Assembly: GCA_002269645.1 (NCBI GenBank)
Contig: NIVC01001500.1
Coordinates: forward strand, 213,935 to 277,934
Direction of reading: 5' to 3'
Origin: Macrostomum lignano
Taxonomy: Eukaryota
DNA: 64,000 bases
Of the stretch, positions 2,371 to 64,000 are shown piece after piece (the first letter of the stretch is position 1; each line of letters starts with the position of its first letter). A program made the position numbers and the translations under genes. The notes under the pieces are model-generated. The model saw only the letters and a program-made list of their open reading frames with translations. It ran no database searches and was not told the DNA's origin.

Positions 2371-2404
2371 TTTTATAGATAAAAAAATTAACAATTTCTT
2401 ATTT

Positions 2405-3064
2405 TTAGATATCTGTTTCCTCCGGTGTTGGTAGAAGGCTGTTAATATCTTCTACTATTTCTTTTAGTAATTTAATATTATTATGTAGAAATATAAGATC
2501 TTCTTTAACTTTATTTCTTATCTCCTTCGGGTCGTACCGTAAGTTCGCAGCGTTTGTCCTATCGGGCGAAGGCCGCGACCCTTCGGGGCGATCGTTTGTA
2601 AAAGTAAGTAAATAATTAACCATTTGTTTAATCTGTTGGAGCTTAGTACCATATTGTATGGTTGTAATAATTCCCGCTTTATATAAACTTAAAGATTCTT
2701 TATAAATTCTTTTTTGTCTTTCTGCTTCCGTTTGGACTTTTTCTTTCTTTTCTTTTTCTCTAATTTTAATAACATATTGGTTAGTTGTAGACCATAATTC
2801 TGTTAACAGATATATGCTGTTATTTAATATTGCAATATCTAAGCCCTCCATCCAGTCTTCTAAACCATCTGGAATTTGCTTCTGCATCTCTGTATTGTTT
2901 TTTAATAATGTACTTAACTCTTTTAGAGATTGTGGTAGTTGTGGCAAAATGCGATTGCAGTCTATCGATCCTTCGATGGTGGCCTTTATTTTTTTTATTG
3001 CTCTTTTTAACATTTTTAAAGTGTGTTTATCGCAGTGGTTACCGCCAAAATTATCTCTGTCCAT
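2405..3064 (-). CDS. Hypothetical helical/coiled-coil protein (219 aa) of the element
   Basis: ATG-initiated ORF, co-oriented with and 35 bp from the next gene, with AT-rich codon usage. Confidence 0.7.
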   Translation of the reverse strand: MDRDNFGGNHCDKHTLKMLKRAIKKIKATIEGSIDCNRILPQLPQSLKELSTLLKNNTEMQKQIPDGLEDWMEGLDIAILNNSIYLLTELWSTTNQYVIKIREKEKKEKVQTEAERQKRIYKESLSLYKAGIITTIQYGTKLQQIKQMVNYLLTFTNDRPEGSRPSPDRTNAANLRYDPKEIRNKVKEDLIFLHNNIKLLKEIVEDINSLLPTPEETDI

Positions 3065-3102
3065 TTTTATGGAAAAAAATTTAAAGTTTTAGAGGTAGTA
3101 TG

Positions 3103-4913
3103 GTTTCCGGTTGCTATTGTGGATTCCGGTTGCTGTTATGGATTCCGGTTGCTGTTATGGATTCCGGTTGCTATTGTGGATTCCGGTTGCTATTGTGGAT
3201 TCCGGTTGCTGTTATGGATTCCGGTTGCTGTTATGGATTCCGGTTTCTGTTATGGATTCCGGGTTCTGTTATGGATTTTGGTTTTTGTTATGGATTTCGG
3301 TTGCTATTGTGGATTCTGGTTTCTATTGTGGATTCCGGTTTCTGTTATGGATTCCGGTTTTTGTTATGGATTCCGATTACTAATATGGCTTCCGGTTTCT
3401 GTTATGGATTCCGGGTTCTGTTATGGATTTTGGTTTTTGTTATGGATTTTGGTTGCTATTGTGGATTCCGGTTTCTGTTATGGATTCCGGTTTTTGTTAT
3501 GGATTCCGATTACTAATATGGCTTCCGGTTTCTGTTATGGATTTTGGTTGGTGTTATGGATTCCGGGTTCTGTTATGGATTCCGGTTTCTGTTATGGATT
3601 CCGGGTTCTGTTATGGATTCCGGTTTCTGTTATGGATTCCGGTTTCTGTTGTGGATTCCGGTTTCTGTTATGGATTCCGGTTTCTATTATGGATTCCGGT
3701 TTCTGTTATGGATTCCGGTTTTTGTTATGGATTCCGATTACTAATATGGCTTCCGGTTTCTGTTATGGATTCCGGGTTCTGTTATGGATTCCGGTTTCTG
3801 TTATGGATTCCGGGTTCTGTTATGGATTCCGGGTTCTGTTATGGATTCCGGTTGCTATTGTGGATTCCGGTTGCTGTTATGGATTCCGATTACTAATATG
3901 GCTTCCGGTTTCTGTTATGGATTCCGGGTTCTGTTATGGATTCCGGTTTCTGTTATGGATTCCGGGTTCTGTTATGGATTCCGGTTTCTGTTATGGATTC
4001 CGGTTTCTGTTATGGATTCCGGTTTCTGTTATGGATTCCGGTTTCTATTATGGATTCCGGTTTCTGTTATGGATTCCGGTTGCTGTTATGGATTTTGGTT
4101 GGTGTTATGGATTCCGGTTTTTGTTATGGATTCCGATTACTAATATGGCTTCCGGTTTCTGTTATGGATTTTGGTTGGTGTTATGGATTTTGGTTGGTGT
4201 TATGGATTCCGGTTGCTGTTATGGATTTTGGTTGGTGTTATGGATTTTGGTTGGTGTTATGGATTCCGGTTGCTGTTATGGATTCCGGTTGCTGTTATGG
4301 ATTCCGGTTGCTGTTATGGATTCCGGTTGCTGTTATGGATTTCGGTTGCTATTGTGGATTTCGGTTGCTATTGTGGATTTCGGTTGCTATTGTGGATTTC
4401 GGTTGCTATTGTGGATTTCGGTTGCTATTGTGGATTTCGGTTGCTATTGTGGATTTCGGTTGCTATTGTGGATTTCGGTTGCTATTGTGGATTTCGGTTG
4501 CTATTGTGGATTTCGGTTGCTATTGTGGATTTCGGTTGCTATTGTGGATTTCGGTTGCTATTGTGGATTTCGGTTGCTATTGTGGATTTCGGTTGCTATT
4601 GTGGATTTCGGTTGCTATTGTGGATTTCGGTTGCTATTGTGGATTTCGGTTGCTATTGTGGATTTCGGTTGCTATTGTGGATTTCGGTTGCTATTGTGGA
4701 TTTCGGTTGCTATTGTGGATTTCGGTTGCTATTGTGGATTTCGGTTGCTATTGTGGATTTCGGTTGCTATTGTGGATTTCGGTTGCTATTGTGGATTTCG
4801 GTTGCTATTGTGGATTTCGGTTGCTATTGTGGATTTCGGTTGCTATTGTGGATTTCGGTTGCTATTGTGGATTTCGGTTGCTATTGTGGATTTCGGTTGC
4901 TATTGTGGATTTC
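3103..4913. repeat. 19-bp minisatellite, about 95 units (GGATTTCGGTTGCTATTGT and variants)
   Basis: Variant units at 3103-4335 (GGATTCCGGTTTCTGTTAT etc.) and a homogeneous perfect run at about 4336-4913. Confidence 0.97.
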
Positions 4914-5785
4914 GGTACGATCGAGCCGAAGGTTCGCGTGCCTATGGTGCGATTCTGTGGACGTTAGTTTGGAGCTTATGTGGAATTAATTATGGATTTA
5001 TGTGTTATTTTTGTGGATTAAAAATTTTTGGATTTAGATATTGTTTTTTATGGAGGCTTTTTTAATTTTCTTTTGCGATTTGTATGTTTTTATAACGATT
5101 TTAGCTGTTTTAAGACATTTTTGCTTTCGATATGGCAAATTTTGCTGTTTTTAAAATCGGTTTTTTTAAGCCTAAATTTTGCGATTTTTTGGTGTTTTTA
5201 GCGATTTTTAAGCCATTTTTGCTAATTTTAAGCTGTTTTTTAAACACCCAATTTCGCCGAAACTGAAAAGGGTGGGGGGTGTTAAGTGCATTATTTGATT
5301 AGATGTATTAATGGTGTTTAGATGTGTTTTTTTATTTACCCCCCGTGTCCCCCCTCTAGACCCTCAAAACGGTCATTAAAAAAGTGCTCTGGGTCCAGAA
5401 GCGTCTTTTTCTATACTACTTAAGTAGGTTGATATATTACATTCAAAATATAAACAAAAATGCTGTTCGTAGTAATACAAAATAAAACAAAAACACAGGA
5501 TCGATGGGGAGAATGAGGAAAAGCAAACGGGAATACAAGACAATTGACGAACTTACCTAAAATGGCTGAAGCGCCTCGTCATCTAATTGAAAAAAAAACT
5601 CGCCACTCAGCATGCATAATGAAATGAAAATCAGCGAGATTGTTAAAAACAACTAAAATAATTAGCCGCTCAATCAGTCTGATCGGCGTTTTGTTTTTTT
5701 GTCGTCATTTTCCGAATTGCTCTCGACGACTTCGTTGACGGGACCAGCCTGGGCGGGGTCATTAGGAAATGGGATTGTGTTCAGA

Positions 5786-9737: not shown

Positions 9738-9744
9738 TGCTCAC

Positions 9745-10092
9745 CTGTACGCAGGCCATATAAGGTAGGGCAGGTTGTTAGTAAGCAGGCTGACCAAGCC
9801 AGGCGGCAGTGTCAAGGCCTCTGTAACGCAGAGCCTATCCGGTATGAGATGTCGCAGAGCCCTGCAGCTAAGCGCCTGCAGAGTGATTGGCAGACTAAGC
9901 GCCCGGATTAGTTTAACGCCACTCTTAGCCGCCGTGCTGCACACGGCCGGATACATTGGCGCCTTGAGACCGCGAGCGGCCACGCCAAGGCACTGGCGAT
10001 TTAGAAAATAGGTAAGGGTGCCGTGCCAGAGGTCCAGGAGGAGGCCAACAATGGCGCCTTGGCCGAATGGTCTGCAGAATTCGCGTTTTTGC
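9745..10092 (-). CDS. SPSB3: SPSB3-like gene, exon with SPRY C-terminus and SOCS box
   Basis: FGQGAIVGLLLDLWHGTLTYFLNRQCLGVAA...YPAVCSTAAKS...LQALSCRALR...LPPGL. CTCAG acceptor, GTGAGC donor, phase 2-2. Confidence 0.93.
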
Positions 10093-10184
10093 CTGAGGCG
10101 CGATTTCAAGAGGATAGGGGAGTTCTTTTCATTTGTTTCGAGGCGCAAAACTGGGTTTAGGATACTTGAACACTTGCATATATG

Positions 10185-10924
10185 GCGCCAAAATGAGTAG
10201 CAGTTGGCGCTAAAATGAGTACTAGGGAGCTGCCAAAATTGGTACAGGGAGCCGCCAAAATGAGTACCAGGAAGCTGCCATAATGAGTACCAGAGAGGCG
10301 CCAAAATGAGCACCAGAAAGCTGCCAAAATGAGTACCAGAGAGCTGCCAAAATGAGTACCAGAGAGCTGCCAAAATGAGTACCACAGAGCTGCCAAAATG
10401 AGTACCAGAGAGCTGCCAAAATGAGTACCAGAGAGCTGCCAAAATGAGTACCAGAGAGGCGCCAAAATAAACCCCAGAGAGGCGCCAAAATGAGCACCAG
10501 AGAGGCGCCAAAATGAACACCAGAGAGGCGCCAAAATGAACACCAGAGAGGCGCCAAAATGAGCACCAGAGAGGCGCCAAAATGAACACCAGAGAGGCGC
10601 CAAAATGAGTACCAGGGAGGCGCCAAAATGAGCAACAGAGAGGCGCCAAAATGAGCACTAGAGAGGCGCCAAAATGAGTACCAGGGAGCCGCCAAAATGA
10701 GCACCAGAGAGGCGCCAAAATGAGCACCAGAGAGGCGCCAAAATGAACACCAGAGAGGCGCCAAAATGAGTACCAGGGAGGCGCCAAAATGAGTACCAGG
10801 GAGCCGCCAAAATGAGTACCAGGAGGCGCCAAAATTAGTGACAAGAAGACGCCAAAATTAGCACCAGAGAGGCGCCAAAATGAGCACCAGAGAGGCGTCA
10901 AAATGAGTACCAGGGAGCCGCCAA
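10185..10924. repeat. 23-bp minisatellite (GAGAGGCGCCAAAATGAGTACCA), about 32 units, in SPSB3 intron
   Basis: Direct reading. Confidence 0.96.
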
Positions 10925-11070
10925 GCTTGTTACTTAGACACAAAATATCGCCTGTAAAACATTATCAACTGTATATGAATATTTTTATTTCTTAATCGAG
11001 GAAGGAGACAAGCTAGGCATACACGCTCTGACACAATTATTTATGAAAGAAAAGAAAAACAAATCCTCAC

Positions 11071-40728: not shown

Positions 40729-43230
40729 AGGCAGTGTCCCAGCAGGGCCTGGCGGCGCCGGCGGAGGGTGGCGCTAAGGGACGGCGATTTTGTTCTCGCC
40801 ATCAGCTGGGCCGTCGGGGAGGACGGCCGGGTAGCGCACGCCCAGCGCCTTGCGCAGCAGGTTGCGGTGCATCGCGTCCAGGGCCCGTTCGTGCGTGGTT
40901 GTCATTGGGACAGCCTTCCATGCCGTAGAGAAGGATCGGCTCTACAACAGCGCGAAACAGGTACATGTAAATCTTCAGGTCGTCCCGCGCTCCGGAGGTG
41001 AAGATCGGCCTGAGGTGGTGCATGGCGCGCCAGGCCTGGGTCCTCCTGTCCGTGATGATCACCTCTGGGCTCATCACGAGGGTGCCTATGTAGCGGAAGT
41101 CGCTGCACGTTGAGATGGCCTCGCCGTTGGGCAGGGTCAGCGGTGGGGCATTGTCAGCACCCACGTGCAGCACCTCCGTCTTGCCTGCGTTAATCTGCAG
41201 GCCGATCCGAGCGCCTTCCTCGGAGAGTCGAGTAAGAGCGTGCTGGGCTGCTACAGGGTCTCGGCACAGCAGCGCGATGTCATCAGCGTATGCGAGGGCT
41301 GGGAGCGTCACGGCAGTGTGGCGGGAGCTACGCTGAGGCGCGAGGACAAAGCTGTCGTTGTCTCGAAGGCAGCGGCGCAGGATGTAGCCAACAGCCAGAA
41401 TGAAAAGCAGGGGATAGCGTGTCCCCTTGCAGCACCCCAAAAGTGGTATCAAACTCGTCCGTAGGGCCATCGCTGGAGTCAACAAACGCCTTGGAGTTGT
41501 GGTACAGGTCCATAACTGCCGTCACCAGGGTGTCGTTGACGCCGTACTGAGCCAGGAGCCAGGCTAAAGCCGTCCTGCTGACAGAGTCGAAGGCCTTCCG
41601 GAAGTCAACGAAGACGATAGACACGGCTCGAAGACGAGTCTTGCAGGTTTCGACAATGCACCGAATGGCCACAATCTGCTCCGTGGTGGATCTGCCTGGC
41701 CTGAAGCCGCTTTGGAGCTCGAGCAGCAGCGATCGTTCAGGACAGGAAGGAGCCGATTGCGCAACACTGCGTTCAGCAGCTTCGGCAGCGTGCACTCCAG
41801 TGCGATGCCGCGTTGCTTGTCAAGGCTCGTGGAGGCGCCCTTCTTCGGGATGGAGACGATTCTTGAAGTACGCCAGAGGGGGCGGCCGTAGCAGCTCGGT
41901 CACCGCCGAGACAGCAGTACTTGTTCAGGAGGCTAACGTCCGCGGCGATGATCGGGCCGGTGTATAGAAGTCGCCATGCTGGGCTGGGGTGAAGCCGGCG
42001 GCGGGGAGAAGGGGAGACGTCGGGGAGGGGGAATTTAAAACTTGCCGGTAGTGGTCGACAAGCAGGCTCTTTCTTTGCTCGATGTACTCAGCGCCAACTA
42101 CTGTGGTCGGACGAGGTCTTCGTCCTGGTTGATCGCTCGCCAGGCAGCGGTTGTGCCGGCAGTTTTCGGTGGCGGCCTGGATCTCTTGGACCACCTCCTC
42201 AAACACTTCAGTGCGTTGGGCGTACATCACCTGCAGGTTGTCTCTGGCGAGTCTAGCCTGGTCGCTGTCCTCGCCGTACATACATGCGCAACAGTCGGCC
42301 GAGTCGGCCGATCCGGCCGACCGATTTGGCGGCCAATCAAGGAAGTCGCAAAAATGCCCACCCAAAAAATAACCCGAGTAGTAGTACTAAGTAGCTGACG
42401 AGGCATTTTAGCTTAATAAAACAGTCATAGTTACTCCTGCCGTTTACCCAAAGTTGCGTTAATTTTGCTTTCGGGTTTTTTTTATATGTAAGTCGCATTT
42501 TTGGCCAAAAACTACGTCGCATTTTTGTTAAAACTAAGTCGCACGGCTGACCGAATTTTGGAGGTTGCACATGTATGTCGCCGTAACGCGCAGCGGCGCT
42601 CTGTGCAGAGCGCCTGGCAGTGGCGATCACGGGGTCGCAGTCCCAAATTGCCCTTGGCTGGTGTCCTATTTGTCTAGGCAGAACTGACGCTGCCCACCCG
42701 ACGGCACTCGCAAAGGCCTCAGCTGTCTCTGTGATTGCGGGACTCGCGTTGGAGAGCTCGGTCAGGTAGGCAGTGCGAGTCCCTGGGTTCCTCAGGTCTG
42801 CCCAGAGAGGCTTCGGCGGAGGGCGTCTGAATCTCGTCCAGGAAAGGTTCAGTTCGCAAGCAACCAAGCTGTGGTCGGAAGCGACGCATCTGGGGCGGAC
42901 GTTGATCACTCTGCACACCCTAGAACGCATTGGGAAAGGGCAGAGAATCCATTCCAGCCTTGTCGTTCTGCCGTTTGGGCCGAAGAAAGTGGGAAGCTTC
43001 GCGAGCCGCTGCCGTAAAGAGCCATTCACTCCGACGAAGTTCCTAGACTGGATGAAGGTCTCCAGAAGGCGGATTTGGCGTTGGGCACGCCACAGTTGTT
43101 CCATCGGGGGGCAGGGGCGCATTGAAGTCTCCAGCCACAAACATAAGGTCGCGAGCCGGGATTGAGTCCAGGAGGTGGCCAAGCCTGTCGTACAGGTCTT
43201 CAGTCTCGGCGGGGTTCTCGCTGGTCCTGG
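40729..43230 (-). pseudogene. RTE-like LINE ORF2 (APE endonuclease plus RT), frameshifted and 5'-truncated
   Basis: ASDHSLV (APE), QSGFRPGRSTTEQI, FVDFRKAFDSV, GVLQGDTLSP, LAYADDIALL. Confidence 0.92.
42279..42577. mobile_element. P-like MITE (299 bp) inserted in the LINE
   Basis: CATACATG(C/T)GCAAC termini; perfect 8-bp TSD TCGCCGTA. Confidence 0.9.
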
Positions 43231-43403
43231 GGGGGGGGGCATTTTTAATGTAGCACTTAGAAACTTCAAATTTAGAGTTAGACTCTCAGTGGGACCCTTC
43301 TCAATGATTTTTATTAATCTTTAGATTTTATCATATTAGACAGTGAAATGATACATCTAAGAACAACTAAAACAACGTATAGCTATAAAGAATATACATG
43401 TAA

Positions 43404-51070: not shown

Positions 51071-52347
51071 CTAGTACCGCAGCCAATCCGGCGGCCATCG
51101 TTCTCGCACCGGATACCTCCTGGTGGCGTTCTCCTCGTCCGACTGCTCCAACGACTCATTCAACACTCCCGACACGACGCTCTGGGGTGACTCCGATCCC
51201 CTCGTACTCACTTCGACCTCGCCTAGCTGCTGATCTCGTGGCAGGTCTCTCTGGCGATATTCCATCATCTCCTCCACTTCCTCATCTTCTTCAGGTCCTT
51301 CCGGCGGCTCGGCAGCTTCAGTCACACTGTCTTGCCCAACCGTCTCCTCTGCAGGTGTCACTCTCTTGAACGGCGACAAATTGTTGAAGTGAACCCTCTT
51401 GGTTTTCCTTCTATTCGACGGGTTCTGCACCTCGTACACCGCTTCCGAAATCTTGCGCACTACTTCCACTGGTCCTTTCCAGTCGATCCGAAACTTATTG
51501 GGCACCTCTCCCGGCACCTCTCCGGAAAACAAAGACTTTATCACCGGGTTGGTACGCTGATCCACGGACCTTCTTGTCGCAGTAGTCCTTCTGCACCTTC
51601 TGATAAGTACCAGTTGCTCGCCTCACCGCCTCGTGCGCCCTGCCCAGAATGTCTCTTAAGGCCGTTACGTACGACGTCCCCGCCGGAATCTCTCGTGGCG
51701 TTCTGTACGCAACGTTTAGCGGTAACCGCATTTCTCGACCATGCAGTAAAAAAATAAGGCGTATAGCTCGTGCCGCGGTGCACAATCGACCGGTACGCCA
51801 TCAACGCCGAATCAATCAGGTCTTCCCATCTGCGATGCAACTCCTTATCACCGACTTCAGGGTTTGGTTGAACTTCTCCACCTGCCCGTTACCGCTCGGG
51901 TGATAGGCCGTAGTCCGGGTCTTATGGATTCTAAGCAGAGTGCACAGCTCGCACATCACTCTGGACTCAAAATTGCGTCCCTGGTCACTGTGAATCGAAC
52001 TCGGGCAACCATAGACACTGATCCAGTGGGCAAATATTGCTCGAGCGACGGTGTGAGCTCTCTGATTGCGGATCGGGATCGCTTCTGGCCACTTAGAAAA
52101 CGCGTCCTGCAGCTCTGGCACTTCTTGGCAACGGCCCAACAATATCCACCATCACTCTCTCGAACAGTGGCTCGAGCGGCGCTCTGGCGTCCTTTGCCAG
52201 CTTCAACTTGGCACACGCTTCGCAGCTCCGCAGAAATTCCACGATTTCGCGACTAATTCCGGGTCTCCAGAACCGTGACAGGACCTTCCGCTTTGTCTTT
52301 TGCAGGCCGAAATGGCCGCCCGCCACGCCACTATGACAGTGCATCAA
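51071..52347 (-). pseudogene. Gypsy integrase (HHCC, rve core, C-terminal GPY/F-like region), frameshifted
   Basis: HSGVAGGHFG...CEAC; IHSDQGRNFES; TTAYHPSGNGQVEKFNQTL; WKGP..V; VHFNNL. Confidence 0.9.
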
Positions 52348-52449
52348 GATCCTCCGCAGCAGACACTGTGGTAGAACAATCTATTACCATGACAGAGCCC
52401 GCTGCGATGCACTACGTAGTAGTCGAATTCTGCCAGCTTCTCGAGCCAC

Positions 52450-54786
52450 CTAGCACACTGACCTTCCGGACCCTTCAGATTGTGAATCCACTTCAAGTTG
52501 TTGTGATCCTTTCGCAAGCAGAATCTTCTTCCGGCCAGATAGTACCGATACTTGACCATGAACGTCACCACCGCCAACAGCTCTACTCTCATCGTGCAAT
52601 AGTTCCGCTCTGCCGATGACAGCGATCTTGAGCCATACTAAATAACCTTGCTTCTGAGACAACACAGCGCCAATGCCGATGGATGAGCTCGCATCTGTGT
52701 CGAGGATGAACTCACCAGCCTCGGGACCAAAATCCGGAAACGCCATCACATCTGTACTCGTCAGCCGCGCTTTCAAGTTCCGGAACGATCGCTCATCGTC
52801 CGGTCCCCACTCAAACTCGACACCTTTGCGAGTCAACCTGAGCAGCGGCTCGGCAACACTCGAGAAGTTTTTGATAAATCGGCGATAATAGCTGCACAAT
52901 CCCATGAACGATTGCCCGTCTCTGGTGTTCTTCGGTTGGGGCCAGTTTCTGATCACTTTGACCTTCTCGCTCTCCGTCTCCACTCCTGCCTCCGACACCT
53001 GATGGCCCAGGAACGTTACCTTCTTCATCAGAAAATGACACTTCTCTGGCTTCAACTTCACTCCAGCCTTCCGCAGCCGAATGAACACCTCTTCTAACCT
53101 TTCTAGATGCTCGTGAACCGTCTTGGACCACACGAGGATATCGTCCAGGTAGATTAAGCACGTCTTCCAGGCCACGTCGCGCATTGCTAGAGCCATCAGC
53201 CGCGTGAAAGTTGCAGGGCTATTGACGAGTCCAAACAGCATCACTTTCCACACGTACTGACCCTTCAGAGGCACCGAGAAGGCCGTCTTGAGTTGATCCT
53301 CCAGTCTTACTTTCACCTGCCAATAGCCGCTGTGGAGGTCCATCGAACTAAACACTCTTGCTCCCGCCAGTTCGTCCAACGCATCGTCCAACCTCGGCAA
53401 CGGAATAGCATTTCTCGTCGTTACTTTATTCAAACCACGGTAGTCTACACACATCCGTAGGCTGCCATCCTTCTTGCGTACACAAACGATTGGAGCGTTC
53501 CAAGGAGACTGCGCTGACTCGATGCGTCCCTGCTCCTCTAGCTCATCCACGAGAGCATGCACTTCTTGCCTAAGGTGCGGGGGCAGTCTTCGCGGCGGGA
53601 TGTTGACCGGCTTGGCCTCTCCAGTGTCGATCTGGTACTCCACCAAGGGTGTCACACCCAACTGTGCTGAGTCCGTCACGAAAAGATCACCATACGAGTC
53701 GACTAAGTCCTTAAACCGCCGACGCTGCTCCTCAGTCGTCATTCCGTCGCCCCACTTGCCGAGCTTCTCAAAAACTTTGTCCTCTTCGAGTTCCTCGGCC
53801 TTATCTGTCCTGCTGGGACGTTCCTTGGAATCGCTCTGCAACGCCGCGATCCTTGGCTGCTCTTCCAGTTCCAGCGGTCGATACCAGCCAACAGCCTCTC
53901 CTCGCCGCAACCGCACCGGTTGCTCTGATAGGTTGCAGACACGAACCACAATCTTTCCGCTCTCGTCTGGTGTCACAAGCGCTCTCGCGGCAACCACCCC
54001 AGTTCCCTTGGGGTGCTTCAACGGATCCATAATTCCTGCTACTCGGACATTTCGACCTCCCCTCGTATCCAGTCGGCCGAGCAGAACCGCCTCGTGGCCT
54101 GGTTTAACCGTTGCTGTATCATTCAGGCGAATCCGGCACGCCACTGGTCGCTCTCGTTGGAACCGGATGGGAAGCACTACATTCCTGAGTCGCAGCTCTG
54201 CTCTGGCATAATCGATTTGGCAGCCGTGCCGTTGCAGGAAATCCGAACCCAGCACGAGGTCGTAATCAATACCCGACACTACCAGCTCGTCGATAGGCAC
54301 CTTCTCATCAATTTCTAAGTCCAACGTGGTGACACCAATCACTTGAATGGGGCTGCCATTTGCAGTCGTGACTTTGGCGAATGACCCCCGGAAGAGCTCT
54401 GGTTTGTGCCGCAACCGTGAGAACATCGCCTCCGACATGATGGTACACGAGGCTCCCGAGTCCAACAGCGCTGAAACGTGATTATCTTTGGCAATCTTTA
54501 TACTCACATAGACTGACGTCGGGACGATGTTGATGGTGGCCTGTGAAATACTCGGATTCAGAATGGTGCTAGATGCTCTAGTTAGCGGTGTCGCAGCCGG
54601 TGCAAACGACGATGAAGCAGCAGGTGGAATGGTTGATGACGCAAGAGGTGGGACGATTGATGCCGCAACAGGTGGGACGACTGATGACGCAGCAGGTAGG
54701 ATGATTGATGACGCAGCAGGTGGGACGACTGATGACGCAGCAGGTAGGATGATTGATGACGCAGCAGGTGGGACGATTAATGACAC
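52450..54786 (-). CDS. Gypsy pol: aspartic protease, reverse transcriptase, RNase H start
   Basis: ALLDSGAS; RMCVDYRGLN; SMDLHSGYWQV; IYLDDILV; ILDTDAS. Confidence 0.93.
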   Translation of the reverse strand: MSLIVPPAASSIILPAASSVVPPAASSIILPAASSVVPPVAASIVPPLASSTIPPAASSSFAPAATPLTRASSTILNPSISQATINIVPTSVYVSIKIAKDNHVSALLDSGASCTIMSEAMFSRLRHKPELFRGSFAKVTTANGSPIQVIGVTTLDLEIDEKVPIDELVVSGIDYDLVLGSDFLQRHGCQIDYARAELRLRNVVLPIRFQRERPVACRIRLNDTATVKPGHEAVLLGRLDTRGGRNVRVAGIMDPLKHPKGTGVVAARALVTPDESGKIVVRVCNLSEQPVRLRRGEAVGWYRPLELEEQPRIAALQSDSKERPSRTDKAEELEEDKVFEKLGKWGDGMTTEEQRRRFKDLVDSYGDLFVTDSAQLGVTPLVEYQIDTGEAKPVNIPPRRLPPHLRQEVHALVDELEEQGRIESAQSPWNAPIVCVRKKDGSLRMCVDYRGLNKVTTRNAIPLPRLDDALDELAGARVFSSMDLHSGYWQVKVRLEDQLKTAFSVPLKGQYVWKVMLFGLVNSPATFTRLMALAMRDVAWKTCLIYLDDILVWSKTVHEHLERLEEVFIRLRKAGVKLKPEKCHFLMKKVTFLGHQVSEAGVETESEKVKVIRNWPQPKNTRDGQSFMGLCSYYRRFIKNFSSVAEPLLRLTRKGVEFEWGPDDERSFRNLKARLTSTDVMAFPDFGPEAGEFILDTDASSSIGIGAVLSQKQGYLVWLKIAVIGRAELLHDESRAVGGGDVHGQVSVLSGRKKILLAKGSQQLEVDSQSEGSGRSVC

Positions 54787-54915
54787 AACAGGTGGGACTA
54801 TTTGGGATGCAACAGGTGAGATGATGAGATGATTGATGACGCAACAGGTGGGACGATTGATGACGCAACAGGTGGGACGATTTATGACGCAGCAGGTAGG
54901 ATGATTGATGAAGAG
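54590..54915. repeat. 24-bp tandem repeat at the gag-pol junction (SIILPAAS/SVVPPAAS)
   Basis: TGATGACGCAGCAGGT(A/G)GGA(T/C)GA(T/C) units. Confidence 0.9.
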
Positions 54916-54979
54916 TTAAATGTCACCTGATCCCTTCTCCTCGACGGCTCCATTTGGGGGCGTACCTGACCTCCGGGGC

Positions 54980-55920
54980 TCACTTCCCCCACTGCGGGCC
55001 CCGCTCTCCATTTCCCTCCGCGCGACACTTGGCAGCCACGTGACCAAGTTTGCCACACCGGTGGCACCGAATGCCGCGTCCCGCTTGAGCTCCTTGGTGC
55101 GGACCTCCGGCTCTCTTCCGACAGCGGTTCGCCATGTGCCCCTTCTCATGACAGTTCCAACATTCCACATCGCTGTGTTGATTCGCTGGCGCTGGTCTCT
55201 GAGAACCCTTCCCTCCGCCAGATCCTGACGCCTGACTCTGCCGTAGCTGCCGTTCCTGCTCCTCTATCCTGGCCCGCAGAGCGCCGACGTCCTCTTGATT
55301 TGCCTCCCCGGCTGCGCCCACAGCGTTGAACGCCGCCGTCTTGCCTCGGCCCGGCTGCCCCACGTGGGCCGCTCGAATTGCTGCGTCCAGCTGCCGGGCA
55401 CTCCTGATCGCAGCAGCGAGACTCTCCGGCTGGCTAAGAAATAATTTCTCCCGGACTGACTCGGCTACTCGCACACCTTTCATGAACCGGTCCTTGGCCA
55501 GCTCCGACCTCGCGTCCTGATCAATCGTCGGATAGGCGTTCCGGACTATCTCGAGCAGGGCGTCACCGTAGGCCTCCTTCGACTCCTTCTGATCTTGGTC
55601 CCGTCCCGCCAGCTCCAACCTGAAGTCCTGCGGAGTCCGATGCTGCGTGAACCTGTTCCGCAGATGCTCAGTGAACTCCTCATACTCCAAACCATCCGCC
55701 AGATTAAGGTTGTCCACCGCGATATAAGCTGTGTTGAGATCCAGCAGACTCATCAGATGTGGCCTTCGCCTCACAGAATTCGTTGAAACTCCTCAACCAC
55801 AGGCGAAAATTCATCCCAGTCACATACTTCACCGGCTTTGCCACTCTTGGAGGCCCATGGTTCAAATTCTAGCGCAGCCTGTCCGTCAGCGCACCAATCA
55901 GGTCATCGATACCAGCCATG
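54980..55920 (-). pseudogene. Gypsy gag with two CCHC zinc knuckles (one stop and one frameshift in the 5' part)
   Basis: CWNCHEKGHMANRC and CHRCGKLGHVAAKC; probable ATG at 55920 (MAGIDDL...). Confidence 0.88.
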
Positions 55921-56350: not shown

Positions 56351-59259
56351 GCACGGGGCATTTGTTGGGCCATACGCGTACAACGGGACCCGCACTGTTG
56401 GGCCAAAAAAAATGTTGGTACTGTCCCATCAAGTCCGTCCAACACTTCCAAAAAACTTACAATAGCAGCTCAAAAAAATACTCTATGGATTCAGCTCGAC
56501 AGCCTCTTTTTGATGGTGCAACTCATTTTTAATAATTTTACTTGCTGTGTCAATAAATAAGCAAAAACTGGCGTCCCAATAAGGAAAAATGATACAAAAT
56601 TCGACCAAATCACTATTGGGACACTGAAATGGCTAATCTGCTCCCGCATATTTTTATTGTTTTTTCTCATATTTTTACTAATAGTAGATTTCAAGCGCAT
56701 TCATTTGCTGCAGTCTTTGTTTCAAGACGTAAATACATAGCATACATTAAAATACATACAAAGCAAAGCATAGCAAAACACTTTTAAGGGTATTTTATTG
56801 TCAAAGGATGGTTCTAGATGGAGATAAACCTAAAGAAATGACAAGGGCTTACATGTACTTCTGACTGTGATGGGCATCAGTACTCTACACGAACTAAATT
56901 GTTAGGACAGTGTTGCAGTGTTGAATACAACAGCCCACTCTTGTTAGGACTCATGCTATTGACTGCTGCGCGCATTCGATATTCTATAAATTGTTGGAAC
57001 TGTGTGCTAGTGTCGTTTACAAAAGCCCACTCATATTAGGACTTACCCCGTACATGTTAGGACTAAGCCCTACCCCCCTGTGTACATGGCTCCAATTTAC
57101 CAGAGTCCCCTTGCTAGTTAAGTGTACATTTATTTTGGTCTATTATTTACGCCACCCCGCAAACGTACGGTAAAACTAAATTGGCATGTACTCGCTATGC
57201 TGAAATCAATGGTCAACTCTGCCTCTGCCATGGCACCCGAGTCACCATGGTATGGAAAGAACAGCATGGAATGGCACAGCGAGAAACATGTAAGTGGTAT
57301 TAAAAGCTTTGTCGGAAACAAGAAGCATTTATATTTAAATGCTATAAAAAATACTGCTCCTACTTATTTCTATCTCTACTTCAGGTATATCATCTTTGCT
57401 ACACTGTCATGTGGCGCAATTGCCAAAGGATCCGTCGACTTTAACCGGTAAGCTGTAAAAGCTTTGAGTAAAACTTGACATTTCGTCTGAATCCATTGAT
57501 ATTCAATAGCCTACGTGTCCAACCACAAAAATTATAAGTTTTGTACTTTTAACTCTCAGATTGGGTCTTAGCAGATTCTATAGCTATGCATGCAAGGGCC
57601 CCTCAGAGGAGATGCTTAAACACTGCATTGCATTTTTCCTAGCAATTATTGGGACACGAAGTGTTGGGCCACTGTGTGTGTGTGTCTAGTTTTTTCCGCA
57701 TTTGTTAAGTCACCTAAAGAACTCAATTAATAAAGGGCTCCAGAACAAATTGATGGGCAAACGGATGGCACACTGCACAGAGACTTGTTGGGACATATTA
57801 AAAAACAGCTTATTTTAGAATGGGTATACTTTACTAAAGTAGAATGCTCCTACAGAAAGCTGCAAGCAAACTAGCATCTTCTGGAGCTGACATGCAGAGA
57901 AGAATGATTTTGTCGTCCTTGAAATCACTAAATAGATATGCGAAATCGATCTTTTGCTAATCCCACCACAGGTTCCAGTGAAAAGAAGAAACGAAACCCA
58001 TTGACTAAATTGGCAGTCGACTCAATCGATGCCGCTGCAACGGACCTGTCAGCACTACTATGGACTGGCAGATGGCGCGATTTTGGAGGTGAGGTGGGTG
58101 TCAACCCTCCTCGCCTCTCATTGGCTGGCGCCCCGATCACTAGGTGATCGATACCCGTATCGATATCGGCGCTCGGCGCGCGCGCGCCGCAGGCGCGTGG
58201 CGCCAAGCGCCGTCCAGCCGCAGGCGACCCTCCCCAGCCACCGGCGACCCTCCCCAGCCGCAGGCGCACCTACCGATATGTATGCCCACCCTACCGATAT
58301 GTACCCGATATGTACACCCTCCCGAGCCGCAGGCGCACCCTCCCGAGCCGTAGGCGCCCATGCCGCAGACGCCCATGCCGCAGACGCCCATGCCGCAGGC
58401 ACCCCGAGTGTACACTCTACCGAGCCGCAGGCACCCCGAGTGTACACTCTACCGATATGTACACTCTACCACTCTCCCGATATGTAGTCAACGATATTAG
58501 GCTAGTGAAAACTACTTATAGTAGGTGAAATTGAGTATATTTACATAAAAATGTAGATAAAACATATTGGTAGGTGAATAATGACGCATATTGCATATTA
58601 AAATGTACATATTGGAGCATATGAGCAGCAAAAACACAGGTGTAGGTGTATGGGCAGAAATAGACAAAGCAGGTACTGTAGGCGCTACATAGGTGGAAAT
58701 ACACACAGCAGGTTTACAAAGTGTACTTTCGATACATATCGGATTAATGTATAAAGCAGGTTTACAAGGCATGCATAAGGTGTAGTTGTATAATACAGGC
58801 ACGCATGTATAATCAGATTATAGGCAAACGCCCAGGTGCAACAGACGCGTAAATAATGTCGCACCGACTAAAGAGTAAATATTGTCTAACCCGCAGGTGC
58901 ATAAATATTAAACAAAAGCGGTTCGGGAAATCCCAAAAGGGAGGTTTTAGCCGCCCGTTTTCGCCACCGCCGCCGCCGCCCTAACCCTCTTATAGGTACA
59001 ATTGCGTTGAAAGTATTTCGAGTCATTAGGTTGTAATGACCCTCCATATTTTAGGTGGGTGGACTCGAGCCCGGGGCCCGCCCATTTCAGTTTTTTGGGC
59101 CGGCCCTCTGCCAATTTCCTCCCTAGGAGCGAGCTATCAGAATTGGTCTTTTAACCCCCGTGTATACACACATAGAGGCCCCCCAGCTAGCGCCCATTCT
59201 AACCTACCCAGTGTACAGTGTTGGGTTCCCCAAACCGCGTACAAAGAGAAATACCCTTA

Positions 59260-60274
59260 TCAGTCAATCTCCATACGCTCCCTCAGGGCTGTCTCGTACG
59301 CGGCCTCTTCCTCCACGCTCTCGAAGCAGTAGTCGGATGACTGGCAATGTGGAAATTATAACAGTCAATGTAGATAGAATATATGCAAGGTATATGATTA
59401 GATGAGTTGTGTATATAATGTAATATCTTACCAAATCTAAATCGTCCTCCAGCCGCCACAGACGTAGAGACGCTGTATAGCGCACCAACGAAAGGTGCTC
59501 CTCCCAGTTGGAGGGCCATGCGACGGGCTCATCCCACGCAGTTGGCCGCGCTCCCGGACCGGCCAGGTACGCCTCAGAGTCGGGGGCATACGAATTGCGC
59601 CCCATCAACCAGTCCTGGTGCAGAGTCTCAGCCTCCAACACCTCCCGTAGGCCGGCACCCCTCGCAACCAAAGTATCAAGAACCCGATTAAAGGCTCTGA
59701 CAAAGGTAGCTTGGGAGGGCAGCCCGCCTGGATGCCGAGACCTCAGCCAGTCAATGTCCCCGCGGAAAAATGAGGCCACAATGCGAGGAAAGCGCTCACG
59801 AACCACGGCGATCTCCTCAGACATATCCTCGTCCTCGTCGTCGAAGAGAAGGAGCGTAGCGGCTGATGATATTGAGGCCCGGTGGGAGGTAGTTGAAGCA
59901 GCAGCAGAGACGGGCGTAGTAGAGGCGGCAGCAGCAGAGACGGGCGCAGCAGAGGCAGGGCCGGTTGTGGTCAGCTCCTCAACAGAGACGTCAAAGAGGG
60001 CGGCTGAGGCGGTAGTCAAATCGGAGGCAGTAGCAGCAGGGGCACCGTTCACAACCCCGCCGATAGCCAGCAGCGGGAGGTCAAAAACTTCAGACTCGGT
60101 GTCGCTATCATAGGACATAGCCCAAGCTAGATATTGATCAGCCTCCCAATTATCACTTCCGTTGTTTTCAGTGCCTAGGGGAACTATGTGTTCAGGGATA
60201 TCCCCGTCGAGGCTGGTTAACTCTTCAGTCGGGCGATTATTATCCCAGAGGTTGGATAGAGCTCGGCGGGACAT
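59260..60274 (-). CDS. Spliced orphan gene of the Polinton (about 307 aa; exons 60274-59432 and 59340-59260)
   Basis: ATG at 60274; TTG|GTAAGA donor; TTGCCAG acceptor; phase 0, giving SSDYCFESVEEEAAYETALRERMEID*. Confidence 0.7.
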
Positions 60275-60484: not shown

Positions 60485-60922
60485 CTACCGGAGGCGTGTC
60501 TGTCTTGACTCGCTTGGCTGGAGGGGTGCCTCAGGTGCCGGCTTGAAGAGCTTGTCCAAACGGGCGGCAAACATCCGGCGCCACAGTTCAGGCGTGAATT
60601 CGATCGTGTAGCGCCAATTAAACTTTGGGTCCTGATTGAGCCAATTGCGCAGCAAACGGATCCTCCCTCGCGAAGCTTCAACTGCCTTGAAATTGCCCAA
60701 CAGGACCCGCTTGTTCACGTGAAGGCGGGCAGCAGCCTCCAGGTCAGGGCGCGCAGCTTCGAGCTTCTTCCACTCTGGCTCGGCCCAGTAGATTGCAGGG
60801 AAGCCGTCCTTCCACACTCCGGCCTCGTTGGTGTAGAGACGCCGAATTTCAATCAAGTTGTGTTCAGTTTCAAATGTGGGCTTCCGCGCCACAAAGTTTT
60901 CGTATAGAGAGATAGAAGACAT
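60485..60922 (-). CDS. PC4-like ssDNA-binding protein, probably two tandem PC4 folds (145 aa)
   Basis: IEIRRLYTNEAG...PAIYWAEPEWKKL resembles PC4 (DIRxYY..G...GIxL...W..L); second half IRLLRNW...IEFTPELW. Confidence 0.65.
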   Translation of the reverse strand: MSSISLYENFVARKPTFETEHNLIEIRRLYTNEAGVWKDGFPAIYWAEPEWKKLEAARPDLEAAARLHVNKRVLLGNFKAVEASRGRIRLLRNWLNQDPKFNWRYTIEFTPELWRRMFAARLDKLFKPAPEAPLQPSESRQTRLR

Positions 60923-60970
60923 GATTTAGCAGCAGCAGCAGCAGAGAGCTCTCTGACAGCCGTGCAGCGC

Positions 60971-60978
60971 CTTATATA
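60971..60978 (-). promoter_or_regulatory. Candidate TATA box (TATATAAG) for the PC4-like gene
   Basis: About 50 bp upstream of the ATG, with an Inr-like TCAG about 15 nt downstream of the box. Confidence 0.55.
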
Positions 60979-61164
60979 CCCCCGGGTGGAGGGTGGGGTG
61001 GGTGATGATTTTGGGGTGATTTTTGATGATTTTGGTTGGTTTTTGGCGATTTATCCAATAACAGGCGAGCTGAGCAGATTTTTTAGTATATATACAGACC
61101 CCCAGAGCCAGGGTAGAGAGATAAATCCTTCTCTCTCCGCTCTCTCACGCTCTCTGTTTGCAAA

Positions 61165-64000
61165 ATGGCTAAACGCAGCGCCGCAGCAACTGCTTTCCTG
61201 GCTGACAAGAGGCAACGTCTTTATGGTAAGTTTTAATTAATTTCTGTCTAGACTGTAGTTGCTAGGGTGGGGGTAGGGGCTGAGCAGCAGCAGCAGCTGC
61301 AGGGTCTGTGGGACCGCAGAGTAAACAACAAAGACTGCTGCGACAGCTGCAGGGGTCTAGACTGGAGTTGCTAGGGTGGGGTGCTGCGGCAGGGTCTGTA
61401 ACAGAGAGTTGCAGGGGAGGGCTAGACAAGTTTCAGCCGGGTGTGTGCTGATAAGAAATTGCTGCTAGGGGGTGTTGTCCAGACAGGCTGCAGCTGGGTG
61501 CAAATTGCTGCGACAGAGAGTTGCAGGGGTGAGTAAACAAAGACTGGGGTGGGGGTTGTCTAGACAGGGAGGGGTGTGCTGATAAGAAATTGCTGCAAAA
61601 ACAGACAGTTGCTAGGGTGCTGCGGCAGATAAGAAATTGCTGCAGAATCGTTGGGGCAGGCTAGACAAGTTACAGCCAGGTGGGGGCAGAGAGTTGCTGG
61701 GACTGTGTAGCGCGGGGACAGACTGATAAGAAATTGGCAGGGGCGCTACCCAGACAGGCTGCAGCTAGGTGCAAATTGCTGCGACAGAGAGTTGCAGGGG
61801 TGAGTAAACAAAGACTGCTGCGACAGGCTGCAGCGGGGGTGCAGATAAGAAATTGCAGAGAGTTGCTGCGGGGACAGCAGAGTAAACTCTGTTAAGAAAT
61901 TGCTGGGGCTAGGGCGGGAAACACGCTGGGGCCAGGAAAATGACAGATTCTTCTGGTTTTTTATCTCCTTGTGTTTTTTCAGACGCGTTTGTCCCGCCAA
62001 CACAGCCGGAATCTGTTACCGGACCGGGTGAGTTATCCCGCCCCCATTTCCCACACAGACCCGGGCTGACTCACACTCCCCCATTCCCCCATGCAGGTTT
62101 TACGGCCCGCTGGATAATCAGCGTGACCTGCCCAAGTTTAGGGCAAAGGGTGTCGAGTATGTGGTGCGTATTACCAACACCGAAGATTTGCGGAGGTGTT
62201 TTGCTGACATGCTCGAAGTTTTCAAGCAAGATTTGGCTGGATGACTTATGGCCGCGAAATTCGAGAGCGACAACATGCTCAAAGCGGCCCACACTCCCCG
62301 GTGCGTGCAGCCCGCATGACGGCTGAATTGTTGTTTAAGCACATTGACAAGATTGTGCAGTCGGATGCCACTGTATTGTCAGGCAACTTTTCTGTCCGTC
62401 TGCTAAAGGCCTGGGTGCCTCGAGGTGGATGTGCTCTCGAGAACAAGCATCTAGAAGAGCGGCACGCCTTCTCCAGCACTATGTCCGCATCACCAACTCG
62501 GACAAGAGATGCCTGCTGCGCGCTCTGGTCGTGGCCTGCGCCTACCTGCAATTCGTGGCCAAGTCCATCACCAAGCGGTGTGGCACACAATCAAGGCCAA
62601 TTCGCCCACGCAGACTAAGCTGGTGGCTGAGCTACAAATCGAAGCTGGCCTCTACACGGTAAGTTTCTAGTATTTTTCGATAAGAATTTTTACACAGTCG
62701 TGGAATACTAAAAGATATTTTCTGATAAGAATTTTTACACAGTATCTGGAATACTAAAAGATATATTTCTGATAAGATTTTTTACACAGTATCAGGGAAT
62801 ACTAAAGAAATATTTTACCCTCCACACAGACTCTTCAAACCGTCTCGCAGGCTGGTCCTTTCGGGTGGATGCACTGCCCGAAGCGATCCGTGCCCTGAAC
62901 CGGCTGCATCCGGGCGCGATTTTGGTGTACGCGTGTACCGCGCAGAGGAGGCCAACAGGTGCATCTTCAACCTGCCTGGCACCGAGATTCTGCACCTACA
63001 CCTGGTCGAGCAGCACTTTAATGTGGTTACCAAGCTGCCTGCGTTTTTCGGGCTCGATCACTACTGCCCCAAGTGCGAGATGGCCTACGACTGCAATTAT
63101 GAGAAGCACAAGTGCGCTGATGCCTGCAGTACATGCAAGACTCCGGGCTCCAACTGTAAGGCAAACCGCGCATATGTAAGATGCCATGATTGCGGGCTAA
63201 ATTGCTATAATGCTCAGTGCCTAGAAAATCACAAGCGCAAGAATAAGGCGGCAGATCGCGCTGTGATTCGGTCCACGTTTGCGGCACGTGTGGCTATCTA
63301 GAAGAACTAAAAGTAGGCCAGCCCCCTGAGCATCAGTGTGGTTACGCCAAGTGCCCAGTCTGCAAGCAGTACGACGAAACTGCCACCCACGAGTGCTTTG
63401 TCACCCCGCCCAAAGCCAAAGAGTCTAGCGCCCCGTATGTTTACTATGATTTCGAGACGTACGTGGACTCTGGCAAGCAGCACCGGGTACACTTGGTTAC
63501 GGCTGCCACCTCCTGCGAGGCGTGTCCCAAACTCTTCCCCAGGCCCGCTGCAGCGTGTGCGGGGACTACACAGCTCAGCCAATTGCATTGCGGGACGCGA
63601 TTGGCACTCGATTTCACGAGCTGTGTCTCGCACAATGACTGTGCCTGTGGGATGCGAGAGTTTGTATCTGTCGGGCCGCACTCTATCGATGCCTTTTACT
63701 GCTGGCTGACTAGTGTGTTCAAGCAGGGGGCAATTGCTATTGCGCACAATGGCTCTGCGTATGACGCATTCCTCCTGCTCGGCGCCCTACTCAACGGACT
63801 GGCCAAGAAGAAGCCGCAGTGATCTTCCAGAACAGCCGCCTAATGTATATGAAGTGCGACAAGATCACCTTCAAGGACAGCCTCAATTTCATCCCTATTG
63901 GTCTGGCGCAATTCCGAAGGCGCTTGGTTTGGGCACCCAACTGACCAAAGGAGATTTCCCGCACGTGTTAACCAGCCGGAAAAATTGGGGGTACGTCGGT
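61165..64000 (+). CDS. polB: Protein-primed family B DNA polymerase (pPolB), spliced, with 1-nt frameshifts, partial
   Basis: ITNSDKRCLLRALVVA; Cys-rich fingers (YCPKC...HKC...CHDC); ExoI YYDFET; ExoII AHNGSAYDAF; FKDSLNFIPIGL; TKGDFPH. Exons 61165-61225, 61983-62027, 62097-62658 and 62830 onward. Confidence 0.9.

Follow-up and report, generated by a model that had tools for sequence, protein, structure and literature searches.

A Polinton-derived element of Macrostomum lignano with an intron-split, spliced gene for protein-primed DNA polymerase

The protein-primed DNA polymerase B (pPolB) of Polintons is generally described as the product of one uninterrupted open reading frame (ORF), and the locus treated here raises the question whether such a gene can be divided by spliceosomal introns and, if so, what kind of element carries it. 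The stretch of DNA that was analysed, termed the window in the following, comprises 64,000 nucleotides of Macrostomum lignano (GCA_002269645.1) and represents the last 64 kb of contig NIVC01001500.1 (C1500) of the 764-Mb genome; the contig stops at window base 64000. For positions 61165 to 64000 a pPolB gene with three spliceosomal introns had been proposed (the original prediction). Its premise of a single ORF in Polintons agrees with the available portions of two papers, according to which intact vertebrate Mavericks are without introns (PMC8097293, citing Kapitonov and Jurka 2006) and nematode core genes are intronless, introns being present in cargo genes only (10.1101/2022.07.12.499685). 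In M. lignano, the pPolB transcript is spliced at canonical GT..AG sites, and the gene has six introns. The element appears, with a high degree of probability, to be an intronised Polinton replication module (a "mini-Polinton", here family A), which is still multiplying, is spliced by the host and is integrated by a helper. Contigs of the genome (G000) are designated by C and sibling and related loci by L, each followed by a number.

Splice-site words by themselves were no proof of introns, since GTRAGT hexamers are common in the window (30 on the plus strand and 34 on the minus strand, with two decoys within intron 1). For the last 3 kb of the window, at least 21 other full-length matches at 93–98%, one at 88% and many partial ones were found among the best 40 of 102 candidates. 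An alignment was made of 25 siblings and the window copy; both ends of the element were recovered in 24 of the 25 siblings. All parts of the gene lie on the plus strand. Exon 1 (61165..61225, 61 nt, MAKRSAAATAFLADKRQRLY) is of modal length and stop-free in 23 of 25 copies and is joined to exon 2 in the sequencing runs X1 and X2 (see below); its product would be a basic leader, rich in Lys and Arg and similar to a nuclear localization signal. Intron 1 (61226..61982, 757 nt, phase 1) extends from GTAAGT to TTTCAG and contains internal repeats, with five GATAAG and three RTAAAYA words. Exon 2 (61983..62027, 45 nt) has the same length in all 26 copies and 0% substitutions among them. It is followed by intron 2 (62028..62096, 69 nt, phase 1, GTGAGT..CATGCAG), which has a CTGAC branch-point word about 30 nt upstream of the AG, and by exon 3 (62097..62658), which is 562 nt long compared to a modal length of 569 nt and has a broken frame in the window copy. 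Intron 3 (62659..62829, 171 nt, phase 0, GTAAGT..CACACAG) contains 3.1 copies of a 47-nt unit. Of exon 4 the first 1171 nt are present (62830..64000; modal length 1920 nt), with a broken frame in the window copy and truncation by the contig end. All exons, splice words and the CTGAC word named in the original prediction were thus located exactly. Its three introns stand, and only the total has to be corrected to six, since exons 5–7, introns 4–6 and the right terminal inverted repeat (TIR) lie beyond the contig end and are known from siblings only, where the additional introns measure 65–89 nt each.

The survey of intron positions across copies, which had been recommended, showed the donors and acceptors of introns 1–3 conserved in 26 of 26 copies; the sites of introns 4 and 5 are conserved in 25 of 25 siblings, and intron 6 is canonical in 24 of 25. 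Intron lengths are free to vary (487–762 nt for intron 1, about 68–72 nt for intron 2, 119–257 nt for intron 3) and often are not multiples of three. Gap events in the copy alignment amounted to 0–2.5 per kb in exons and 9–29 per kb in introns, with one duplicate insertion omitted. A GT donor, an AG acceptor and a pyrimidine-rich 3' end, as in major-class spliceosomal introns, are present, and in introns 2, 3, 4 and 6, though not in 1 and 5, the last 70 nt before the AG contain a YTRAY word. Four of the six introns are shorter than 90 nt, which we take to be too short for the core of a self-splicing group I or group II intron. The intron phases are 1, 1, 0, 0, 2 and 2, and the modal exon lengths (61, 45, 569, 1920, 548, 294 and 394 nt) add up to 1276 codons plus a stop in one frame.

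Direct evidence for splicing was obtained from contigs of four runs from four studies (X1, X2, X3 and X16), which were aligned, at 88% likeness, to the inner part of sibling L042. Such contigs carry neither expression level nor strand; no run is annotated as RNA, and the RNA type of X1–X3 is a guess resting on the joints, 15 of 28 of which were listed and are considered here. GT..AG joints were found for introns 1–5 in X1 and X2 and for introns 3–5 in X3, which has in addition a loose end at intron 2. The sole trace of intron 6 among the joints listed was a 12-nt loose end in X2. Run X16 showed no intron joint among those listed and crosses the intron-1 donor unspliced, and may therefore serve as a DNA-like control. 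The junctions whose presence in RNA had been named as a check could thus be found on L042, those corresponding to 61225/61983 and 62027/62097 in X1 and X2, and that corresponding to 62658/62830 in X1–X3. A second gene of the element, ORF1 (see below), provided a further joint: its 91-nt intron (59341..59431, CT..AC on the plus strand) is joined in X2 and X3, and not in X1 or X16.

The protein was examined by comparison with homologues, another check that had been suggested, and the outcome was favourable. When aligned to a profile of 60 distant pPolBs, the products of exons 3–7 follow one another without gaps (profile positions 115–307, 325–922, 923–1108, 1110–1204 and 1206–1341), the match of exon 3 (115–307) having an E value of 1.6e-21. 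Exon 4 of a sibling matched PF03175 with E 6e-15, a second PF03175 match had E 2e-13, and the broken pieces of the window copy gave no match in Pfam. The motifs Exo I–III and Pol A–C are intact, as in a protein-primed family B polymerase. Exon 3 would encode a terminal-protein domain and the first half of a vOTU protease; these domains were assigned by sequence alone and are named after the available part of 10.1101/2024.03.18.585575. In the exon-3 product, just two columns are invariant across 39 sequences, the terminal-protein Ser (codon 62361), which may be the priming residue, and the vOTU Cys (codon 62510). The vOTU His is conserved in 90% or more; it is encoded in exon 4 at 63014, so that intron 3 falls between the catalytic Cys and His, and is followed by a Cys-rich region, Exo I (63448) and Exo II (63763). 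Introns 4, 5 and 6 cut motif A (YRDV|VSLYP), motif B (FLNS|LWGK) and motif C (YADTDS|VVY), respectively.

The pPolB exons are under purifying selection: among family A copies the ratio of nonsynonymous to synonymous differences (pN/pS) was 0.01–0.15 per exon, and between family A and a second family, B, pS was 0.67–0.75 and pN 0.17–0.34. The window copy contains 14 frame-breaking gap events in its exons, the most among 25 copies. For all copies, 66 exon gap events were counted, of which 61 are single-base deletions, 44 of these in base runs; a stop was present in one of 139 modal-length exons, and 7 of 24 siblings were without any break. The pattern of single-base deletions and the position at a contig end suggest that the breaks in the window copy are most likely errors of long-read assembly rather than signs of decay.

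The gene resides in an element whose left border is within the window. A half of the target-site duplication, GTCAGC (58048..58053, plus strand; the other half lies beyond the contig end), is followed by the left TIR (58054..58946, plus strand), which is about 0.9 kb long, begins with 5'-ACTACTA, contains GC-rich short tandem repeats and matches both ends of six siblings. In the 24 siblings with two ends a 6-bp duplication is exact without exception, with 23 distinct sequences, and matches of 5 or 7 bp were found in none; all 24 begin with ACTACTA. In 17 of them the identity between the two TIRs is 97% or more, and in four it is 100%. Seventeen siblings measure 9.4–9.8 kb and seven measure 8.7–8.8 kb. 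The order is TIR, ORF1 (in the longer form), a PC4-like gene (ORF2), the seven-exon pPolB and TIR, with both ORFs on the minus strand.

ORF1 (59260..60274) consists of two exons (60274–59432 and 59340–59260), separated by the GT..AG intron mentioned above, and encodes an acidic, Ala-rich protein of unknown family; the 8.7–8.8-kb variant does not have this gene. No Pfam match under 0.04 and no Atlas match were obtained for ORF1, and six of six homologues are labelled Macrostomum lignano. ORF2 (60485..60922) is an open frame of 146 amino acids, and of 165 or 178 amino acids in siblings. It shares 30% identity over 115 amino acids (E 1e-10) with a PC4 gene, itself a match to PF02229, from a complete Polinton of the same genome; an ORF2 profile matched PC4 chains in PDB (E 3e-4), and the top three Atlas matches were PC4 at 0.84–0.85, which was treated as a lead only. 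A single-sequence fold of ORF2 reached a pLDDT of 34.5 and was discarded. ORF2 would thus be a candidate for a single-stranded-DNA-binding factor. The short last exon of ORF1 (59260–59340, ..CFESVEEEAAYE..) resembles the C-terminal piece of database models of ORF2 (..CFESADEEETAL..); this common tail suggests that ORF2 may be spliced, too, in the short variant. Between ORF2 and pPolB, the region 60923..61164 contains TATA-like words, noted from the sequence only, and may represent a divergent promoter for both genes. GATAAG words are repeated in intron 1 (five) and intron 3 (three), and RTAAAYA occurs in intron 1 (three) and in the TIR; intron 1 of family B is without them. These intron counts were reached by none of 200 shuffles. 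We take the two words to be GATA-like and forkhead-like, respectively. The loci L107 and L108 (C513 and C157) are rearranged copies of a subfamily of about 90% likeness; their exon 7 is cut, and behind it exons 1–3, ORF2 and ORF1 lie in inverted orientation.

Seven queries for integrase, ATPase, protease and capsid matched none of 31 elements of families A and B, and genes for major and minor capsid, retroviral-like integrase, packaging ATPase and protease were not found in these 31 elements within the limited reach of the queries. Family A is filled by its TIRs and three genes, which leaves no room for an integrase or virion genes. The element shares with Polintons the pPolB, the putative terminal-protein and vOTU domains, TIRs in the range of 100–1500 bp and a target duplication within the range of 5–8 bp, its 6 bp being the typical length and the one used to define Polintons in the accessible text of PMC8097293 and 10.1101/2023.08.22.554363. 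It does not share the integrase, the virion genes, the length of 13–25 kb and the intronless core genes. The prediction of a Polinton-type pPolB with spliceosomal introns was correct, while a complete Polinton is not present; with integrase, ATPase, protease and capsid lacking, the element should be regarded as a Polinton derivative and not as a canonical Polinton.

Family B provided information about the age of the introns. Its elements are about 9.5 kb long, begin with ACTACGTA, have 6-bp duplications in four of the four copies with both ends located, and are 55–74% identical to family A in amino acids, depending on the exon, with synonymous sites near saturation. Six copies have introns 3–6 at the codons of family A (both ends are present at 23 of 24 sites, one donor being GC), and introns 1 and 2 were located in three copies. 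Open frames of 867–873 amino acids had made family B appear intronless; this was ruled out, as its intron 4, of 81 or 87 nt, is open. The notion of an intron-rich lineage is borne out by these two families with six shared sites. The 12 introns of A and B have no mutual similarity at E 0.01, which argues that they are neither recent nor introners; introns 1 and 3 contain internal repeats. A pattern for the motif-C Ser codon with its intron matched 87 sites in the genome (control, 0), which by our own count are 49 A-type and 38 B-type. A Tyr-Gly, as in the cellular YGDTDS, was read by none of the 87 matches, which gives no sign of an intron position shared with host polymerases at motif C. Families A and B form one clade with support 1.0 in a tree for which 76 of 80 rows were kept; four divergent polymerases of the same genome were excluded because of poor coverage. 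Outside homologues are 30–41% identical, the best including proteins from sea anemone, beetle, damselfly and sea cucumber, together with many unnamed proteins from assemblies. At the sites of introns 3–6, no insertion of more than 15 amino acids interrupts the distant homologues (55 of 56, 62 of 62, 47 of 47 and 43 of 43, respectively), and a decayed relative in the same genome (C234) is continuous through sites 4–6. The simplest reading would be a single gain of all six introns in the ancestor of A and B. In L096–L098 (C1485), a family B element is nested in another element with ACTACGTA ends, which has its own 6-bp duplication and inverted arms of about 2.9 kb; in L104–L106 (C1300), long (ACT)n/(AGT)n arrays border a family B copy and extend the terminal word.

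A distant pPolB in two loci from sediment metagenomes, L148 (positions 1–3171) and L143, which are 98.8% alike, has a phase-2 intron at each of motifs A, B and C (70, 51 and 51 nt, respectively). The site in motif C matches that of the M. lignano element; those in motifs A and B are at other codons. These loci were found by the motif-C pattern itself and amount to 2 of 21 metagenome loci, representing one distant pPolB element; the shared site may be a hot spot or an older intron. The gene next to this pPolB also looks intron-split. Viral contigs yielded no close relative, and the motif-C pattern found five viral loci, none of them a pPolB.

The observations can be combined as follows. Host RNA polymerase II would transcribe the element from divergent TATA-type promoters; pPolB would prime on the Ser of its own terminal protein at the TIR ends and copy excised linear DNA, aided by the PC4-like protein as single-strand binder; and the retroviral-like integrase of a complete Polinton of the same genome would insert the element in trans. 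The spliced introns mean dependence on the host spliceosome, and the lack of integrase and capsid genes means, probably, dependence on a helper element. The introns would have been gained in the A+B ancestor after its split from intronless relatives, and could persist because copying from DNA to DNA never removes introns and because three of them sit in motifs A, B and C, where inexact loss would be lethal and exact loss alone tolerated. Candidate helpers are at hand: the genome holds complete Polintons of 16.4–16.8 kb with integrase, ATPase, protease, capsids, PC4 and an intronless pPolB of another group. There were 73 capsid matches among the best 126 of 195 candidates, and two integrase families with at least 150 matches each; a search with Pox_A32 found no ATPase in the genome, yet ATPases are present, so that this query was insensitive. 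The complete intronless Polintons belong to at least four families (L117–L120, L151–L160, L026); one integrase of a complete Polinton has a phospholipase-A2-like N-terminus, and in another family the integrase is placed directly behind pPolB.

Several points weigh against this reading. The complete Polintons whose ends were examined begin with 5'-AGTAGTAG, whereas families A and B begin with 5'-ACTAC; their integrases may thus not recognise the A and B ends. No excised or replicating form of the element was seen. The queries for the missing genes came from one Polinton group and overlooked the minor capsid and protease of another family, so that their sensitivity was limited, and the left part of family B, about 3.5 kb, is without a recognised gene. 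As to splicing, X1–X3, classed as RNA by guess, also contain contigs within introns; the contigs were aligned to L042 and are not assignable to the window copy; and the listed trace of intron 6 is a loose end. As to the time of intron gain, the homologues are proteins without gene structure, many from assembly gene calls, and those from NCBI could be spliced; the intron-split pPolB of L143 and L148 means that the motif-C site could predate A and B.

Other explanations have to be weighed against these data. That the locus is a dead Polinton with intron-like repeat insertions, or a single domesticated host gene, might be suspected from the 14 frame breaks of the window copy and the repetitive introns 1 and 3; the original prediction had named a lack of spliced reads and disruptive repeat insertions as the outcome that would speak against introns. 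This explanation has practically nothing left to recommend it and was rejected: spliced joints exist, the introns are mutually dissimilar in spite of the internal repeats in two of them, sites are invariant and the same in family B, selection is purifying, at least 21 other full-length matches at 93–98% exist, and TIRs and duplications are fresh. Quite improbable, too, is an element which is otherwise a nuclear linear plasmid and enters the genome by means of an integrase from the host or a retrotransposon, or by repair. No helper with matching ends was found, and gypsy elements are present, one of them 2.3 kb from the left end, but the exact 6-bp duplications with intact ends (24 of 24) have the size that defines Polintons, and repair would not yield them. 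A somewhat better case, still an unlikely one, can be made for a split Polinton, of which the pPolB element is one half and a partner of 8–10 kb with the same TIR carries the integrase, perhaps the capsid, and is maybe intron-split as well, in which case six-frame searches would not detect it. A 25-mer from the core of the family A TIR had 215 exact matches in the genome (control, 0), roughly double the number that 49 A-type polymerase sites would require. In the first 100 of the 215 matches there were 35 facing pairs less than 12 kb apart, of which 16 enclose no family A polymerase site, 13 of these measuring 8.0–9.8 kb; they comprise C93:602860, C176:801021, C181:502561, C212:381967, C261:123529, C303:572768, C436:114990, C530:311938, C558:43517, C625:278575, C660:142206, C977:137749, C1009:225138 and three of smaller length. 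Family A and such a partner would together have the length of a normal Polinton, and the unusual ACTAC ends would be accounted for; a bipartite, spliceosome-dependent Polinton would be a DNA virus caught turning into a host-style transposon. Yet the 16 intervals are absent from the capsid matches (best 126 of 195), from those of two integrase queries (best 150 of 2170 and 150 of 1814), from the ORF2 matches (best 150 of 252) and from all 108 ORF1 matches, in searches swamped by matches to other families; they may be non-autonomous copies that are decayed or filled with cargo.

A different kind of explanation concerns the reason for the introns and is compatible with a helper-dependent, host-spliced replication module. 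The introns could be adaptive, either by making the transcript mimic that of a host gene under surveillance against intronless DNA, or by gating expression through splicing or enhancers in introns 1 and 3. We regard this as possible, though rather doubtful. All six sites were kept while synonymous sites became saturated, an unspliced RNA would yield no enzyme because three introns cut catalytic motifs, and the RNA-type runs also contain intron contigs. From the portions available, HUSH silencing in human cells is countered by introns (PMC8770142), and in nematodes small interfering RNAs dependent on ERI-6/7 target intron-poor genes (10.1101/2024.01.15.575659). The enrichment of GATAAG and RTAAAYA in introns 1 and 3 over shuffled sequences would fit such a role, but these counts stem from internal repeats and are not independent, and intron 1 of family B is without the motifs. 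Intronless Polintons thrive in the same genome, and retention requires no benefit. The adaptation to host nuclear expression proposed in the original prediction is not supported; there was no sign that the introns were selected for.

Known systems offer partial parallels. With Polintons or Mavericks (polintoviruses, animal adintoviruses) the element has in common the order terminal protein, vOTU, exonuclease and palm, the long TIRs, the 6-bp duplication and a PC4-like gene; it differs in its size of 8.7–9.8 kb instead of 13–25 kb, the lack of integrase, ATPase, protease and capsid, the six pPolB introns and the ends, which begin with ACTAC and not AGTAG. The DNA polymerase of adenoviruses is related, and its reading frame begins in a tiny upstream exon; to our knowledge, it has no introns inside catalytic motifs. 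Adenoviruses have a separate terminal protein and an inactive vOTU, according to the consulted part of 10.1101/2024.03.18.585575. The same text describes yeast cytoplasmic linear plasmids of the pGKL1 type and transpovirons as capsid-less TIR replicons with a terminal protein, vOTU and pPolB, which arose from Polintons when the virion module was lost. Unlike the pGKL1-type plasmids, the M. lignano element is integrated with target duplications and, being spliced, it is nuclear and not cytoplasmic. Group I introns in such elements are on record (PMC12220804, in part). Polinton-like elements of dinoflagellates also carry spliceosomal introns; these are introners, young copies of intron-making transposons which, as far as the accessible text of 10.1101/2025.03.18.643946 goes, were mostly gained after integration, whereas the six introns described here are unrelated to each other and old. 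The core genes of mirusviruses, a lineage of DNA viruses, have canonical GT-AG introns of about 80 nt, taken as a sign of nuclear life (PMC12768974, available part); mirusviruses are unrelated large viruses, their intron-rich orders are without the polymerase, and many of their introns encode endonucleases, of which there are none here. No further case of introns in such elements was present in the available portions of 10.64898/2026.07.28.741278, 10.64898/2026.10.13.758929, 10.1101/2024.01.15.575659 and PMC5718144, and in the literature outside subscription journals, Repbase and supplements neither a spliceosomally split pPolB from an animal nor the present element was found to be described.

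The expectation that ORF-based searches would miss such elements proved justified. A large survey (10.1101/2023.08.22.554363, seen in extracts) required an ORF of at least 900 amino acids and a linked integrase, and gave a Polinton length of 13–25 kb; the longest exon of the present gene encodes 640 amino acids, and there is no integrase. An element which passes neither filter but is represented by at least 87 polymerase copies in a single genome, transcribed and spliced, means that censuses undercount. The locus lends itself to the study of old intron gain in a gene of viral origin. Since intron-bearing and intronless Polintons occur in one genome, protection from silencing by introns should be directly testable, and since a replicon without capsid and integrase is still multiplying, the same should hold for the long-inferred integration of Polintons in trans.

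Other features were noted elsewhere in the window. A gag-pol region of a Gypsy-type long terminal repeat retrotransposon, with protease, reverse transcriptase, RNase H and zinc knuckle, is located at 51071–55792 (minus strand), 2.3 kb from the left end of the element. Degraded reverse-transcriptase fragments with RVT_1 matches, similar to a non-long terminal repeat element, are found at 40802–43320 (minus strand). Between 35374 and 39135 there is an ORF of 647 amino acids with a weak match to DUF4218, which we presume to be a transposase-like label, followed by a second ORF and a tandem array of about 0.8 kb which is open in five frames. Long ORFs with a strong strand skew and without a confident Pfam match occur at 2–5065 and 9741–10961, together with an ORF with a SPRY domain on the minus strand.

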